From the NCBI GenBank assembly GCA_965207065.1, contig OZ242260.1, forward strand, positions 3,008,001 through 3,072,000: a stretch of 64,000 nucleotides of DNA, in the 5' to 3' direction. The stretch comes from a bacterium. GTDB taxonomy: Bacteria > UBA8248. The notes under the pieces were generated by a model. It was not told the DNA's origin. It did no database searches and saw nothing but the letters and a program-made list of their open reading frames with translations. Position 1 is the first letter of the stretch; each line of letters begins with the position of its first letter. Position numbers and translations under genes: made by a program. Below, in pieces: positions 8,837 through 16,619 of the stretch.

Positions 8837-10909
8837 ATGAATCAGCCCCTGCAGAAGAACCGCCTCGCACAGGAGACGAGCCCGTACCTCTTGCAGCATC
8901 AATACAATCCGGTGCAGTGGTATCCCTGGGGCGAGGATGCGCTCCGCAAATCAAGAGAAGAGAACAAACCCATTTTCTTGTCCGTCGGCTATTCCGCCTG
9001 CCATTGGTGCCACGTGATGGAGCATGAGAGTTTCGAGGATGAGGGGATCGCTGAAATACTGAACAAGCATTTCGTTTCCATCAAGGTGGACCGGGAAGAA
9101 CGGCCTGATATCGACGGTATCTATATGGAAGCGGTGCAGATGATGACGGGCCAGGGCGGTTGGCCGATGAGCGTTTTCCTGCTCCCGGATTTGAGGCCCT
9201 TCTTCGGGGGCACGTATTTTCCGCCGGATGACAAATGGGGGAGGCCCGGCTTCAAAAACGTGCTCTTGAGGCTGGCCGAAGTTTATCAAACGAGACAGGA
9301 CGATTTGCATACGAACGCAGAAAGCATCACTGCGAATCTGCAGCAAATGGGGGTCGTAACGCCTGCGGAAGGTGATTTGAAAACGGAGTGGATCGACCAG
9401 GCCGCTCAGGAACTCAAAGATCGATTCGATTCCACCTGGGGCGGTTTCGGGAACGCTCCCAAATTCCCGCCCTCCATGGCGCTGATGCTACTTTTAAGAA
9501 AATGGAAGCGGTCCCCGGATCAGGAATTGCTGAAGATGGTCGAGATAACGCTTCAAAGAATGGCGCTGGGCGGGATGTATGATCAACTCGGCGGCGGTTT
9601 TCACCGCTACAGCGTGGATGCTTACTGGCTCATTCCGCACTTCGAGAAAATGCTTTATGACAACGGCCTTCTCGCCAGAGTCTACCTCGAGGCCTACCAG
9701 GCGACGGGAAGCGCGTTTTACCGCTCCGTGGTGGCGGATACCCTCGATTACGTTTTGCGCGAGATGACCAGCCCGGGCGGGGGATTCTACTCCGCGCAGG
9801 ACGCCGACAGCGAGGGTGAGGAGGGCAAGTTCTTCGTATGGCGTCCTGAGGAGATAGAAGAGATTCTCGGCAAAGAAGAAGCTGACATATTCTGCCGGTT
9901 CTACAGCGTGACGGAAGAGGGGAACTTCGAGGGCAAAACCTCCGCCTTGTTCATTCAGAAACCACCTCGCGTTTTCGCTGAGGAGTCGGGGATCACGGAG
10001 GAGAAGCTCTTTGAAGTCTTACAAAGAGGGCGCGCAAAACTCTTCGCCGAGCGGGAAAAACGTGTGAAACCTGGTCTGGACGATAAAATTCTTACGAGTT
10101 GGAACGGGCTCATGATCGGCTCGATGGCTATGGCGGGCAGGATTCTGGAACACCCCCCCTATGTGGAAGAAGCGGGCAAGGCGGCGGATTTTATTTTGAA
10201 CAACATGCGCGATGAACGCGGATTGCAGAGAAGCCACCGGGAGGGTGTGAGCAAGTTCAACGCGTATCTGGATGATTATGCTTTTCTGATCCTGGGCCTG
10301 GTAGATTTGTACGAGGCGAGCTTCGAGCCCCGGTGGATTCGAGCGGCCTCTGATTTGGCGCGGGAGATGATATCGCGCTATTGGGATGATGAAGGGGGCG
10401 CATTCTTCTTTACGGCCCACGATCATGAACAGCTCATCGTGAGGAAGAAGATGACGCAAGACGGCGCCGTTCCGAGCGGGAACTCGATGGCGGCGCTGGC
10501 GTTACTGAAGCTGGCGAAACTCTCGGGCGAGACGGAATTCGCAAAACGCGGCGAGGAAGTTTTGCGCTCGTTCGGCGATTATTTGGGCCGCGTTCCGGCC
10601 GCCTTCCACATGATGCTGGTGGCGCTTGATTTTCATCTGGATTCCCCGGTGGAGGTGGCGATTGTCGGTGAGAAAAACGCAGAAGATACACAAGCGGCCC
10701 TCAGGGTCGTTGATTCCCGCTTCATTCCCAATAAAGTATTGGCTCTCAAGTCCGAATCATCAGGCGAAGAAGCAGATGCCACAGTGCCTCTGCTCGATGG
10801 AAAGGCCATGGTGGAGGGACGAGCCGCCGTCTACTTGTGTGAAAATTTCACGTGCAAGGAGCCTCTTACGGACCTAAGCGCAATTGAGAAAGCGCTCGAG
10901 AGCGGTTGA
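8837..10909 (+). CDS. Thioredoxin domain-containing protein, YyaL/SPATA20 family
   Basis: [41 protein letters not shown] motifs. Confidence 0.95.
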
Positions 10910-11700: not shown

Positions 11701-12342
11701 CTAGTTTCGGTGCCTGGAGAATGCCTCACCAATGCTCATGCCTTTATCGAGTTCCGCGATGATTTTTTCTTCGATTTCCGCCAGCTCATCCATCTTGTCG
11801 ATGACTTCTTCGAGCCTTTCCCCGGGGATGACGACAACGCCGTTGACGTCGCCAAGAATGATGTCTCCCTGCCTCACCGCGACGCCCCCGCAATTGATCG
11901 GCTCTCCCACACTGATGGGAACCGTATACCCACCGCTGCCGTGAACCGATACCCCTCTGGCGAATACGGGAAAACCCGCCTGGCGGTGTTCTTCGATGTC
12001 CCTTGCCCTGCCGTCCAGGACGACGCCACCTAAATTCATCACCTTCGCGCGCGTGGTCATCATCCCGCCCCAGTTGGCCGTCGTGACTCCGGGCGGGATG
12101 CTGATGACGACGATGCTCCCCTCGGGCGCCGCGTCGATGTGGTGTACCTCGCGTTTGGGCAGCGGTCCGCCGCCGGCGGGAACCATTCGAACGTTATGGG
12201 CTTCCCCCACCATCCTGTAATCCGGGTCGGGCGACAACAGGATGATGTCGGGCATGTGGCCCCTGATTTTCAATTTGTCAAAAGCGTCCGCTACCTGACA
12301 GGCTGAATAGCCCCTTAAGCGATTTACCAAGTCATTGCTCAT
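11701..12342 (-). CDS. RraA family protein (HMG aldolase/oxaloacetate decarboxylase-like)
   Basis: VADA, WGGMM, DGRARD, FPVFARG, GDIILGDVNGVVVIP motifs. Confidence 0.88.
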   Translation of the reverse strand: MSNDLVNRLRGYSACQVADAFDKLKIRGHMPDIILLSPDPDYRMVGEAHNVRMVPAGGGPLPKREVHHIDAAPEGSIVVISIPPGVTTANWGGMMTTRAKVMNLGGVVLDGRARDIEEHRQAGFPVFARGVSVHGSGGYTVPISVGEPINCGGVAVRQGDIILGDVNGVVVIPGERLEEVIDKMDELAEIEEKIIAELDKGMSIGEAFSRHRN

Positions 12343-13182: not shown

Positions 13183-14010
13183 CTAATTTGTCACCGCATC
13201 TTGTGCGTGTGATTCGTCGGTGCTGGCCAGATATTCCCGAAGCCCGTTCTGGCTTTGGGTCAAGGTCATGTAACGACTCATTTCAGTTTTGTCGACCCCA
13301 TAGTATGGGTGGCAACTGCAGGGAGACGCCCCGCCCGGCGTTTCCACGACTGCTTTGACGAGGAAGCCTGGAATAGTGGTTCTCTCCGGTTCCGCTGCGA
13401 TCTCTTCAGAGCCAACGATTTTTTCGGTCGTGAGAATGACCCCTTTTTGCGCCGCGCGCGTCATTTCAACGTCGAATTGCTGGTTGCCCAGGATTTGCGC
13501 GTTTCCCTGCGGGTCAGACTTCTGGACGTGTATCAATGCCCAGTCCGGCTTGAGAGCGGGAATCGCATAGAGTTCCTCTTTCGTGTAGGGGTCTTCCATC
13601 GTGAAGATGCCGCTTTGCTCCGGGATGTCGCTCCCGTCGAAACCGCGAATGGGCTGGAAGGGAACGCCGTAGGCTGCGGCCCGCAGCCCAGCAAGAACGC
13701 TGGCTCAGGCGTGCTCGGTCAGGCCGGCAAGTCCTTTCTCTATCGCCTTCCGGTAGTGAGGCGCCAATCCGAATTCCGCCTCGAAGGTGACGATGCCGCT
13801 GATGATTCTCTTCACGGCCCCTGCGGCGCAAAGGAGATCGGCGTCGTAACCGGGAGAGGGTTTGATGAGCGTGAGATCCCGAAGGTCCGCGCGCGCGATT
13901 TCACGGATGAGGGCGGCGGGCGTTCTGTGCAAGAGGGTGCCGCCGGGACTTATTGCGTCTCCTCCTTCAATGAGAGAAACGGCTTCTCGTAAGGACATTT
14001 GCTTGCTCAT
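13183..14010 (-). CDS. Class I CoA-transferase-fold alpha subunit (GctA/IpdA-like) with an in-frame UGA at codon 102; predicted selenoprotein
   Basis: Track ORFs 13705..14055 and 13183..13599 share a frame and are joined by a single TGA (13705-13707). Read-through gives TEHA-U-ASVLAGLRAAAYGVPFQPIRGFDGSDIP, the continuous family motif. 275 aa. Confidence 0.85.
13670..13704 (-). promoter_or_regulatory. Candidate bacterial SECIS element
   Basis: mRNA UGA-14 nt-UGGGCUGCG[GGC]CGCAGCCUA forms a 9-bp stem with a G-initial loop 23 nt after the UGA. Confidence 0.6.
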
Positions 14011-14242
14011 GGCAGCTTCCATCCACTCGTTTTGGGCGCATGATGTGGGCAACACAAATTATGGGGCATAGTTTAACAAATGTTGATGATTTGTGCTTGC
14101 GCTCATGCGCCTTCATGCCGTCAGAGAAGTGAATTTGACGCATTCATTGACCGAGAACCCGGTGTGGCGTAAATATCGATGAGATGAGAGTTGCTCTCAT
14201 GCGCAAGTATACTTCCAGATGAATCAATCGAAGGAGCATGGA

Positions 14243-14755
14243 ATGCCACGGATTTCCTTGTTAGAGCCCGAGCAGGCGGAAGCATCCGCGAAACGCATCA
14301 TGGAGAATCTGAAAAAACAATTCGGTGTCGTGATTCCGCCTGTGAAGGCACTGGCCCACAAACCGGATTTTTTGCGTTCTTTGCTGAGCTTGACCACGGT
14401 GGCGGACGGCCCGGGGGAGATCGACGTCGGCTTCAAGGAAATCTTGAACATTCGCGCATCGGTGCTCAACGGGTGTCATTTTTGCACCAACATGCATTCC
14501 AACATGGCAAGGATGCACAAGGCAGGAGACGAGAAGACGAAAGCCGCGCAAGAGGGTTCCTCGAGTGACGTCTTCGATGAGAAGGAGAAGGCGGCGCTTC
14601 GCCTTTGCGAGGAGAGCACGCAGGGGGTGAGCGTTTCGGACGGGACGTTTGAAGCGCTGAAGGCACACTATTCTGAAGCGCAGATAGTGGAGCTTCTCGG
14701 CGCCATCGCACTCATCAACACCTGGAATCGACTGATCGTGGGAATGGGCTTTTAA
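14243..14755 (+). CDS. AhpD/carboxymuconolactone decarboxylase family protein
   Basis: E....RAS.LNGCHFCTNMH (CxxC..H) and INTWNR motifs; SD AAGGAG before ATG 14243. Confidence 0.9.
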   Translation: MPRISLLEPEQAEASAKRIMENLKKQFGVVIPPVKALAHKPDFLRSLLSLTTVADGPGEIDVGFKEILNIRASVLNGCHFCTNMHSNMARMHKAGDEKTKAAQEGSSSDVFDEKEKAALRLCEESTQGVSVSDGTFEALKAHYSEAQIVELLGAIALINTWNRLIVGMGF

Positions 14756-14802: not shown

Positions 14803-15981
14803 TTAGAGGCTTAATGCGGCCCTGCTGACCGTGAGTTCGGTTTCTCCGAGAAGCTCCGATGTCGTGAGTTTACCGCTCATCACCGCTATCAGTTCTTTTT
14901 CGAGCAGATCTCTCGCCTCATCGATTCGCATCGTCCCCTCCATGACGCCGCTGATGTCCACGTCGATGTTCTCGGCCATCGACCGCGCGGTACGGGGATT
15001 GCCGGTCACTTTGATGGTGGGAGAGATGGGATGGCCGATGGGGTTGCCGATTCCGGTCGAGAAAACGATCGCCTGCGCTCCGCTGGCCGCCAAAGAGGAA
15101 ATGTTCTCTACGCCCGCGCAGGGAGCGTCGGCGAAGATGGTGCCTTTCTTCGAAGGACGCTCTCCCACACCGACGACTTCGACAATGGGGTGACTGCCCG
15201 CTTTCTTGATGGCTCCCAGGCTTTTCTCCTCGATGGACGACAGACCGCCCCGGATGTTATCCGGCGCCGGGTTCGAGCCGATGAAGTCGACGCCGATGCT
15301 TTCGGCGTAATCGACGGCGCTCTTTGCGGAATCGATGATTTTTCGCGCCGTTTTTTTGTTTGTAGCCCGGCGGGCGAGTAGATGCTCGGCGCCCACGATT
15401 TCCAGCGTCTCGGAAAAGATAACCGAACCCCCCGCTTCCACGACTCTGTCGGCGACCATGCCCGTCACGGGGTTCGAGATGACGCCGCTGGTCGTATCCG
15501 AGCCTCCGCATTCCGCCCCGATGGTGAGTTCGCCCAACTCACAGCGGACTCGCTTGGCCGATGCGAGATGGGCGGAAAGTTTCGTGGCGAGTTCCACGAC
15601 ATGCGAGGTGGTGCTGAGCGTGCCTCCAATCTCCTGGATGTTCACGGCTTCTATGGGCATCCAGGGAGACGTTTTTGCGGCTACTTCCGCGATGGCGTTG
15701 GCGCTCTTGGGTTCGAGGCTCACGATGATGGCGGCCCCGACGTTCGGGTGGGCGGCGGTGTGTCCCATAACCCGCCAGTGTTGCGTCTCGTCCTCGCCCA
15801 TCAGGGCGCGTCCGAACGAGGTGTTGACAGGGGTGGCGTCTCGCACCAGCGAACCGATTCTGCGGACGATGGGGTTGGAATTGTCCATTCCGCTGACGAT
15901 GGCGAGATGATTCCGGCCACCCGGAGGACCTTCAAGTCTCCTGTAGCCCCAGAAAGTGGGAGTTGCTTTTTTCCGGGCCAT
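14803..15981 (-). CDS. UxaA/GarD family dehydratase large subunit, SuyB (sulfolactate sulfo-lyase beta)-like
   Basis: FWGYRR, HPNVGA, ECGGSDTTSG, SNP, FSET, NIRGGLSSIEEKSLG, FSTG.GNP motifs. Confidence 0.85.
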   Translation of the reverse strand: MARKKATPTFWGYRRLEGPPGGRNHLAIVSGMDNSNPIVRRIGSLVRDATPVNTSFGRALMGEDETQHWRVMGHTAAHPNVGAAIIVSLEPKSANAIAEVAAKTSPWMPIEAVNIQEIGGTLSTTSHVVELATKLSAHLASAKRVRCELGELTIGAECGGSDTTSGVISNPVTGMVADRVVEAGGSVIFSETLEIVGAEHLLARRATNKKTARKIIDSAKSAVDYAESIGVDFIGSNPAPDNIRGGLSSIEEKSLGAIKKAGSHPIVEVVGVGERPSKKGTIFADAPCAGVENISSLAASGAQAIVFSTGIGNPIGHPISPTIKVTGNPRTARSMAENIDVDISGVMEGTMRIDEARDLLEKELIAVMSGKLTTSELLGETELTVSRAALSL

Positions 15982-15983
15982 GC

Positions 15984-16256
15984 CTAGCCTCTTGTGCTCT
16001 TGATGTTATGGACGTGAACGTGACAGCCTGCGGGTATTTCTTGTGTGGCGGTGCCGATGACCTCGCCGTATTTGAGCACTTTTGCGTTCGAGCGGATCTT
16101 GCGCAGCGCAATTTTGTGTCCAAATGGAATGGATTCAGTTGCGGATAGCGTGATTGTCTCATCCCCGCCTTCGATTTCCACGCTATGCCCTGAGGAGACG
16201 TCCTCGAGAACAGTGGCCACGTTGTCTTTCGGGTGCATCACCAGCGCTCGGCTCAT
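15984..16256 (-). CDS. Stand-alone SAF domain, UxaA small subunit (SuyA-like)
   Basis: HPKDNVA, IPFGHKIAL, KYGEVIG, HVHVHN motifs. Confidence 0.92.
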   Translation of the reverse strand: MSRALVMHPKDNVATVLEDVSSGHSVEIEGGDETITLSATESIPFGHKIALRKIRSNAKVLKYGEVIGTATQEIPAGCHVHVHNIKSTRG

Positions 16257-16277: not shown

Positions 16278-16619
16278 CTAGTCGTCGCTTCCGACATTAC
16301 CGGGGAGCCTCAACCGCAGCCGCTCGACGGGGCGGCCGTTTTTCAAGTGTTCCTCGATGACTTCGGGAACGTCCTCCACCTTTACGCCCGTGTACCAGAC
16401 GCCCTCGGGGTAGACGACCAGGGTGGGGCCCATCGTGCACGGACCCAGACAAGTGGCGCCTGCCATGGCCGTATCCGAGGCGAGTTCGTCATCCGAGCCA
16501 ATCGCCTCCGTGATCGCTTGCGCGACCTCGATGCTGCCCTTGCTCTGGCAACAGCCCATCGGGTGAGTCGGCGGGCGTTGATTGATGCAGACGAAAACGT
16601 GTCTTTTGATGTGTTCCAC
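16278..16619 (-). CDS. Thioredoxin-like [2Fe-2S] ferredoxin
   Basis: HVFVC...GCC...CLGPC..GP..VVYPEGVWY, EHL.NG motifs; GTG start after SD GAGG. Confidence 0.92.
   Translation of the reverse strand: MEHIKRHVFVCINQRPPTHPMGCCQSKGSIEVAQAITEAIGSDDELASDTAMAGATCLGPCTMGPTLVVYPEGVWYTGVKVEDVPEVIEEHLKNGRPVERLRLRLPGNVGSDD

Follow-up and report, generated by a model that had tools for sequence, protein, structure and literature searches.

A putative selenocysteine-containing alpha subunit with the glutaconate-CoA-transferase fold in the bacterial phylum UBA8248

The gene considered here lies on the minus strand of a 64,000-nucleotide (nt) stretch of DNA (the window) from a bacterium of the GTDB phylum UBA8248 (GenBank assembly GCA_965207065.1, contig OZ242260.1, positions 3,008,001 to 3,072,000 of the forward strand); it encodes a homolog of GctA, IpdA and AibA, the alpha subunits of two-subunit enzymes with the glutaconate-coenzyme A (CoA)-transferase fold, and is followed by the gene for a beta subunit (Table 1). 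The alpha frame ends in a TAG and is free of frameshifts; its sole in-frame stop is a TGA at codon 102, which is predicted to be read as selenocysteine (Sec). A first-pass annotation of the window had described a single in-frame TGA in an otherwise intact 275-residue GctA/IpdA-like protein, a description borne out by the frame check and by the match to Pfam CoA_trans (PF01144), which covers residues 5-223 of the read-through protein (E 6e-21). The peptide around codon 102 reads ...LTEHA-U-ASVLAGLRAAAYGVPFQPIRG. Under translation table 11 the frame is broken into a 116-residue open reading frame (ORF) from an upstream GTG (14055..13705) and a 138-residue ORF from an ATG (13599..13183); no ATG, GTG or TTG occurs in the window gene from the TGA to Met138. 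NCBIfam contains no specific model for either subunit, and returns only sub-threshold matches to 3-oxoacid CoA-transferase models for alpha and beta alike.

Table 1. Features of the locus and selenocysteine genes of the host genome (positions are those of the window, unless another location is given)
Feature	Location	Strand	Basis and remarks
Alpha subunit gene, GctA/IpdA/AibA-like (CoA-transferase fold)	13183..14010	-	275 codons, predicted Sec at codon 102; Pfam and PDB profile matches
UGA codon 102, very probably read as Sec	13705..13707	-	Conservation, dN/dS, Cys homologs
SECIS-like hairpin	13671..13689	-	8-bp stem, 13689..13682 with 13678..13671; GGC loop 13681..13679; within codons 108-114
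Beta subunit gene, 250 residues	12428..13180	-	Pfam CoA_trans 7e-19; begins 3 nt after the alpha stop
RraA-like aldolase/decarboxylase-family gene	11701..12342	-	Pfam RraA-like 5e-31; downstream of beta
CMD/AhpD-like gene, CxxC motif (CHFC)	14219..14755	+	Pfam CMD 5e-14; divergent neighbor
UxaA/altronate-dehydratase-like split pair	14803-16256	-	SAF-domain small subunit 15984-16256, large subunit 14803-15981
selA	host genome		579 bits
selB	host genome, adjoins selA		386 bits
selD	G000:C1:543537-544499 (locus L011)	-	334 bits; own in-frame TGA at the known Sec site
tRNA-Sec	host genome		75.9 bits; anticodon TCA

The TGA is conserved at codon 102 among the close relatives of the gene. A scan of species-representative genomes finds it in 21/21 related loci at 79-95% identity, mostly from metagenome-assembled genomes labelled Nitrospinota, with the frame otherwise open; in a search of 51 genomes of the phylum, all of the 35 top matches (63-100% identity; 34 genomes, 5 genera) carry a single TGA, while matches at or below 53% identity are stop-free, bar one fragment. 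This fragment (G028:C3:194103-194543) matches at 40% identity over residues 115-262 and has one in-frame TGA; its genome is without an orthologous Sec gene. The orthologs comprise 31 distinct coding sequences, and in each an ATG or GTG precedes the TGA by exactly 101 codons. When C-terminal fragments split off by the TGA were used to seed a scan of metagenomes, 76 loci came back, 53 with TGA, 14 with TGC, 8 with TGT and one without coverage of the site; because of this seeding, the 53:22 ratio of TGA to Cys codons is not a prevalence figure. The TGA forms among these loci fall into at least eight divergent sequence or motif groups, down to ~40% identity to the window sequence.

Constraint on the protein is the same on the two sides of the TGA. 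Pairwise Nei-Gojobori estimates over the 31 orthologs give a median ratio of nonsynonymous to synonymous substitution rates (dN/dS) of 0.106 upstream and 0.117 downstream, or 0.108 downstream when the hairpin codons described below are left out; the ratio is equally low on both sides, so the 3' part is not decaying, and the relaxed selection that was named earlier as the mark of a pseudogene is not seen in the 3' half. Of four short RNA-library contigs, those of X17 and X18 (178 nt each, 13657-13834) bridge the TGA with 0 differences, although the two share the same length and depth and could come from a single data set; those of X16 and X19 lie in the 3' half and cover it in part. Transcription is weakly supported by these contigs. 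That the TGA is real, rather than an error of the reads, is indicated by the 31 distinct orthologous coding sequences, the 53 metagenome contigs and the RNA-library sequence across it.

Full-length database homologs at 40-56% identity have Cys at column 102 in the motif E-[HN]-A-C; homologs more distant than this have Glu, His or other residues. The nearest homologs therefore have Cys, and not the Trp or variable residues that the first-pass annotation held would speak against Sec. Genomes with the TGA gene also encode a Cys paralog (45-53% identity) and a third paralog (37-41% identity); the third paralog of the window's own genome (G000:C1:145830-146612, minus strand, 38% identity) displays His at the Sec/Cys/Glu column (…EEWSHMSIG…), and the same active-site position would therefore be occupied by Sec, Cys or His within one genome. 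A quick maximum-likelihood tree of 114 sequences, non-redundant at 85% identity, was built with a short search and no bootstraps, and several of its long branches are flagged; Cys and Sec forms group in one clade of 90 rows (Shimodaira-Hasegawa-like approximate likelihood ratio test 99), with Glu-type and His-type forms outside it. At least five Cys-Sec switches occur inside the clade, four of which are forced by strongly supported branches. By these comparisons the product belongs to a distinct clade in which position 102 is always Cys or predicted Sec, with Glu (IpdA-like) or His in the sister clades. In genus g9 (locus G047:C378:30000-38000, L081; also L124) an alpha gene of the Sec type, a beta gene and an alpha gene of a paralogous clade with Cys are arranged in tandem.

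A hairpin similar to a selenocysteine insertion sequence (SECIS) is predicted just 3' of the UGA, where the RNA at nt 18-36 after the U can pair as G-GGCUGCG-GGC-CGCAGCC-U. The structure has 8 pairs, including one G-U; the stem begins 15 nt and the loop 23 nt past the TGA, a position judged by the bSECISearch distance rule. The first-pass annotation had drawn a 9-bp hairpin with a G-initial loop: the hairpin and its GGC loop 23 nt after the TGA stand, but the shared stem has 8 pairs, and the ninth pair (U-A, 13690/13670) is found in the window sequence only. In the 31 orthologs codons 108-113 (GGG CTG CGG GCC GCA GCC) average 0.13 bit of synonymous entropy, the lowest of any six-codon span in the gene, compared with a mean of 1.21 bit over its 110 conserved four-fold-or-more degenerate codons; the Cys paralogs in the same genomes have the same AGLRA[AS]AYG peptide with free codon choice.

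Pairing in this hairpin is maintained through sequence change. Among 60 distinct TGA-containing sequences the GGC loop is invariant and 97.7% of cells are paired, and a shift of the partner by 1-3 columns lowers this to 35-50%; compensatory changes occur at three pairs (C-G replaced by A-U in 14 sequences, G-C replaced by C-G in 5, and G-C replaced by A-U in another 5). At least 7/8 pairs together with a GG loop are found in 44/44 distinct TGA forms, and at least 7/8 pairs in 4/40 Cys forms; the Cys forms have GG at the loop positions in 26/40 and 61.6% of cells paired, a high baseline that comes from the shared peptide. Covariation, which had been put forward as a check on the hairpin, is thus present, and the helix is kept in TGA forms and mostly lost in Cys forms. 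The predicted element is a stem-loop that follows the UGA, carries a G in its apical loop and has covarying pairs, as is expected of a SECIS.

The host genome, a single contig of 4.48 Mb, contains selA, selB, selD and a tRNA-Sec, the genes whose absence would have counted against the prediction. Nitrospinota-labelled genomes of the phylum UBA8248 are described in an excerpt of the BSepDB paper (PMC13326102) as among the most selenoprotein-rich bacteria, with 48-54 genes. The gene selA is present in 49/51 genomes of the phylum, the two genomes without it being 79% and 67% complete; because of this near-ubiquity, co-occurrence of the TGA allele with sel genes was set aside as evidence, being consistent with Sec but not discriminating. 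The in-frame TGA of selD lies in the context …VKAGG-U-GSKLG…; by eye, a short, GC-rich stem capped by a GGA loop can be traced ~17 nt downstream of it, while the minimum free energy fold of 60 nt is a different, longer structure.

With high confidence, UGA-102 is considered to be decoded as Sec and the gene to be a genuine selenoprotein gene; recoding would follow the standard bacterial SelB/SECIS route, with the 8-bp GGC-loop hairpin in codons 108-114 as the signal. A true stop at this codon, leaving a pseudogene or two separately translated pieces, is hardly conceivable: gene callers do treat the TGA as a stop, and 7 of the 120 protein-database matches listed are C-terminal pieces of 161-170 residues from relatives, yet codons 103-137, which precede the first available start at Met138, are conserved as protein with free synonymous change, dN/dS is as low after the TGA as before it, the TGA persists across genera and in clades at ~40% identity, the hairpin covaries, and the homologs have Cys. 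Readthrough without selenium, with Trp or Cys inserted through a near-cognate tRNA or a variant genetic code, is very remote; UGA is the leakiest stop codon, and beyond this general leakiness nothing specific points to such readthrough, whereas the Sec machinery is complete, conservation of the hairpin is confined to TGA forms, the selD gene of this genome likewise has an in-frame TGA, at its known Sec site, and the alpha gene holds just one TGA.

The predicted Sec stands where IpdA has a glutamate. Glu105 is said, in the 2018 work of Crowe et al., to be the catalytic residue of IpdAB, the COCHEA-CoA ring-cleaving hydrolase of steroid catabolism. In profile and pairwise HMMER alignments residue 102 of the window protein aligns with the Glu of 'MDEGM' in the IpdA chains 6co6_A and 6con_A and with Ala in 6coj_A; the entry title of PDB 6COJ is 'IpdAB E105A COCHEA-COA complex', and the earlier claim that the UGA falls on Glu105 of IpdA is therefore upheld. 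The same column has Gln in GctA and Gly in AibA. Among PDB profile matches of the alpha subunit are 1poi_A (7e-60), 6con_A (5e-59) and 5mzw_A (7e-54). An AlphaFold model of alpha, built on the alignment, has a predicted local distance difference test score of 94.7 and places residue 102 at the N-terminus of the helix 102-114, right after the strand 96-99; it matches the folds of IpdA (template modeling score 0.89-0.91), GctA (0.89) and AibA (0.86-0.87).

The beta subunit is most similar to AibB of the 3-methylglutaconyl-CoA decarboxylase AibA/AibB from Myxococcus xanthus (5mzw_D/5n03_D, ~1e-35). Glutaconate CoA-transferase has its catalytic Glu on the beta subunit (Glu54), and the counterpart in IpdB is Gly57, as given in an excerpt of PMC5380842; AibB Cys56 stands at this Glu position according to an excerpt of PMC7756340, and the canonical position in the window beta was located through that equivalence. 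The stretch of alignment that pairs AibB Cys56 with Val62 of the window beta is ungapped and well anchored, and E61 lies one residue earlier. Glu61 is present only in the window's own clade, where it is invariant in the motif 'L-x-E-V-A-G-S'; in the beta subunits inspected from the remaining Sec and Cys clades, the canonical position is occupied by Ile or Val, and Asn, Thr or Ser precedes it. By alignment, the family as a whole is without the transferase Glu at the canonical position. Of the features expected of family I CoA-transferases, the fold is found in both subunits (PF01144, 6e-21 and 7e-19) and the catalytic Glu of beta is not; because beta is without this Glu at the canonical position, the enzyme is probably not a CoA-transferase.

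Three characterized systems share parts of this architecture. IpdAB (PDB 6CO6, 6CO9, 6COJ, 6CON) is likewise a two-subunit enzyme of the glutaconate-CoA-transferase fold, gives the best structural match to the alpha model, has its key residue on the alpha subunit in the same alignment column, and has an IpdB without the transferase Glu (Gly57 beta in RHA1; excerpt of PMC5380842); it differs in having Glu105 where the window protein has predicted Sec, in being only 30-32% identical, and as a Glu-type protein outside the Cys/Sec clade. The steroid-catabolic context of IpdAB (the crotonase EchA20, a thiolase and others) is absent among the annotated window neighbors at ~6.9-19.6 kb. AibAB (PDB 5MZW-5N03) is a non-transferase enzyme of the same fold acting on an acyl-CoA, and contributes the closest solved relative of beta and, with AibA, a top alpha match (3e-32); a cysteine is discussed as general acid in AibAB in an excerpt of PMC7756340, but AibB Cys56 corresponds to Val62 of the window beta, and AibA has Gly where the window alpha has predicted Sec. 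GctAB (PDB 1POI) shares the fold and the two-subunit organization; however, Glu54 of GctB carries the CoA (excerpt of PMC5380842), the aligned window position has no Glu, and GctA has Gln in place of the predicted Sec.

The overall best explanation of the locus, to which we assign a probability of about 0.88, is that the gene encodes the Sec-decoded alpha subunit of a non-transferase two-subunit enzyme with the glutaconate-CoA-transferase fold. Within this reading, catalysis by Sec102 is a reasonable expectation, held somewhat more firmly than doubted, and the odds that the substrate is a CoA thioester are about even; action of the Sec on a CoA thioester is suggested by homology and by gene context in Cys-type relatives.

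In the lineage of the window the alpha(Sec) and beta genes belong to a module, kept to 63% alpha identity, that also comprises the divergent CMD/AhpD-like gene and the RraA-like gene. Most orthologous loci whose flank is long enough have the RraA-like gene after alpha-beta, over the same range of identity. Genera g1, g2, g4 and g8, like related metagenome loci, have the CMD/AhpD-like gene beside the Sec gene, and g9 does not; it is missing from the other Sec clades. CMD-like proteins are a known selenoprotein family. Only the beta gene is common to the Sec clades, and the neighborhood was set aside as a route to the substrate. In the proteobacterial-type Cys clade alpha-beta lies between genes for a family III CoA-transferase, a crotonase and an acyl-CoA ligase; this CoA-gene context suggests an acyl-CoA substrate for that clade.

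The annotated neighbors of the window genes, at ~6.9-19.6 kb, include the RraA-like, CMD and UxaA/SAF genes, RlpA and peptidases. Among the loci seen, only those of the window's genus have the split UxaA/SAF pair beside the Sec operon; the pair may resemble the sulfolactate sulfo-lyase SuyAB. Upstream, at 16278-16619 (minus strand), is a weak match to a thioredoxin-like [2Fe-2S] ferredoxin (E 1e-4, below the Pfam cut-off), which is conserved upstream in g1 and g8; a 690-residue protein with DUF255 and thioredoxin domains is encoded at 8837-10909 (plus strand).

It is hypothesized that, as in the hydrolase IpdAB and the decarboxylase AibAB, an acyl-CoA or keto-acid would be bound at the alpha/beta interface and transformed there, with Sec102, at the position of IpdA Glu105, acting as catalytic nucleophile or proton shuttle. 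The product would probably be passed to the co-transcribed RraA-like aldolase/decarboxylase in this lineage, and the neighboring CxxC AhpD-like protein may hold the selenol reduced. A further proposal, which is tentative and open to considerable doubt, is that the Cys/Sec clade represents an uncharacterized enzyme class in which an alpha thiolate or selenolate replaces the IpdA carboxylate as the catalytic group, and would act through a transient acyl-thioester or acyl-selenoester on an acyl-CoA or beta-keto substrate in C-C cleavage or acyl transfer.

A non-transferase enzyme has to be weighed against other uses of the same residues. The window-clade enzyme could be a genuine CoA-transferase of family I working through beta Glu61, with the alpha Sec/Cys as an auxiliary active-site residue, as the invariance of E61 in window-clade beta and the CoA_trans match of both subunits would allow; this is distinctly improbable, given that E61 lies one residue before the canonical position marked by AibB Cys56, that position 61 is Asn, Thr or Ser in the other Sec/Cys clades, whose canonical site is filled by Ile or Val, and that IpdAB and AibAB use the fold without transferase chemistry (excerpts of PMC5380842 and PMC7756340). 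It is also unlikely, if less so, that the Sec is real but redox or regulatory in function, serving as a selenol/thiol switch or as a redox center serviced by the CxxC AhpD-like protein. Most selenoproteins are redox proteins (PMC13188914), and the CHFC CMD/AhpD-like gene is a conserved divergent neighbor in this lineage; but neither g9 nor the other Sec clades have that neighbor, residue 102 is not part of a UxxC or CxxU motif, and position 102 corresponds to the IpdA residue that was mutated to trap substrate. As for a partner in such a switch, C233, and C61 in most members, could pair with residue 102; C233 is family-wide and also found in the Glu-type and His-type clades, however, and C61 is Cys in 133/181 Cys/Sec-type rows and absent from 48.

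Several observations weigh against the preferred reading of a Sec-decoded, non-transferase enzyme. The case for Sec decoding is comparative and made at the level of sequence. The folding energy of the hairpin is ordinary (z-score -1.24; 21/200 shuffles fold at least as well), and since the z-score is of this size, folding energy was dropped as evidence for the hairpin in favor of conservation and covariation; part of the hairpin conservation is itself protein constraint, because its codons encode a conserved peptide. The RNA contigs are shallow, and RNA libraries may carry DNA. On the side of function, E61 adjoins the canonical position in the window's clade, so that a shifted Glu is possible for transferase chemistry; no strictly conserved Cys partner specific to the Cys/Sec clade is found among 181 rows; and no CoA ligase or other CoA-related gene occurs in the annotated part of the window. 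Other Sec clades have heterogeneous neighbors, namely transporters, an aminotransferase, a radical SAM protein and a methyltransferase.

As far as checked, the Cys/Sec clade of the glutaconate-CoA-transferase fold is uncharacterized and uncatalogued as a selenoprotein. The first-pass annotation held that CoA-transferase-fold proteins are not known among the classical bacterial selenoprotein families, and this is borne out by the full Table 1 of a May 2026 review (PMC13188914), in which the 119 prokaryotic selenoprotein families and subfamilies include no CoA_trans (PF01144) entry. Likewise, no CoA_trans entry appears in main-text excerpts of the deep-Sep paper, which describes nine new families (PMC12013277), or of the BSepDB paper (PMC13326102), the supplementary family lists of both being outside this scope, or in excerpts of a 2022 review (PMC9312934) and of the GOS paper (PMC2398784); a search of full-text literature linking selenoprotein, selenocysteine or selenoproteome with (glutaconate) CoA-transferase found nothing relevant. 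Like the catalogued prokaryotic families (PMC13188914), this one combines a Sec/Cys pair with a SECIS-like hairpin that closely follows the UGA and occurs in a host lineage rich in Sec, but none of those families has PF01144 and most are thiol oxidoreductase-like.

Genes of this kind are called as fragments, the C-terminal pieces of 161-170 residues, and the selenoproteomes of Sec-rich sponge- and soil-associated lineages are therefore under-counted; the Cys/Sec alpha family needs its own annotation model. Sec at the catalytic position of an enzyme with the CoA-transferase fold would carry selenium biochemistry into the field of acyl-CoA or C-C bond chemistry, and would provide, at a single active-site position, a natural set of Glu, Cys, Sec and His forms whose mechanisms could be compared with those of IpdAB and AibAB. 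If a catalytic thiolate or selenolate in this clade is indeed true, its Sec members would be the first selenoenzymes of the CoA-transferase fold, and a rare use of selenium in non-redox carbon chemistry.

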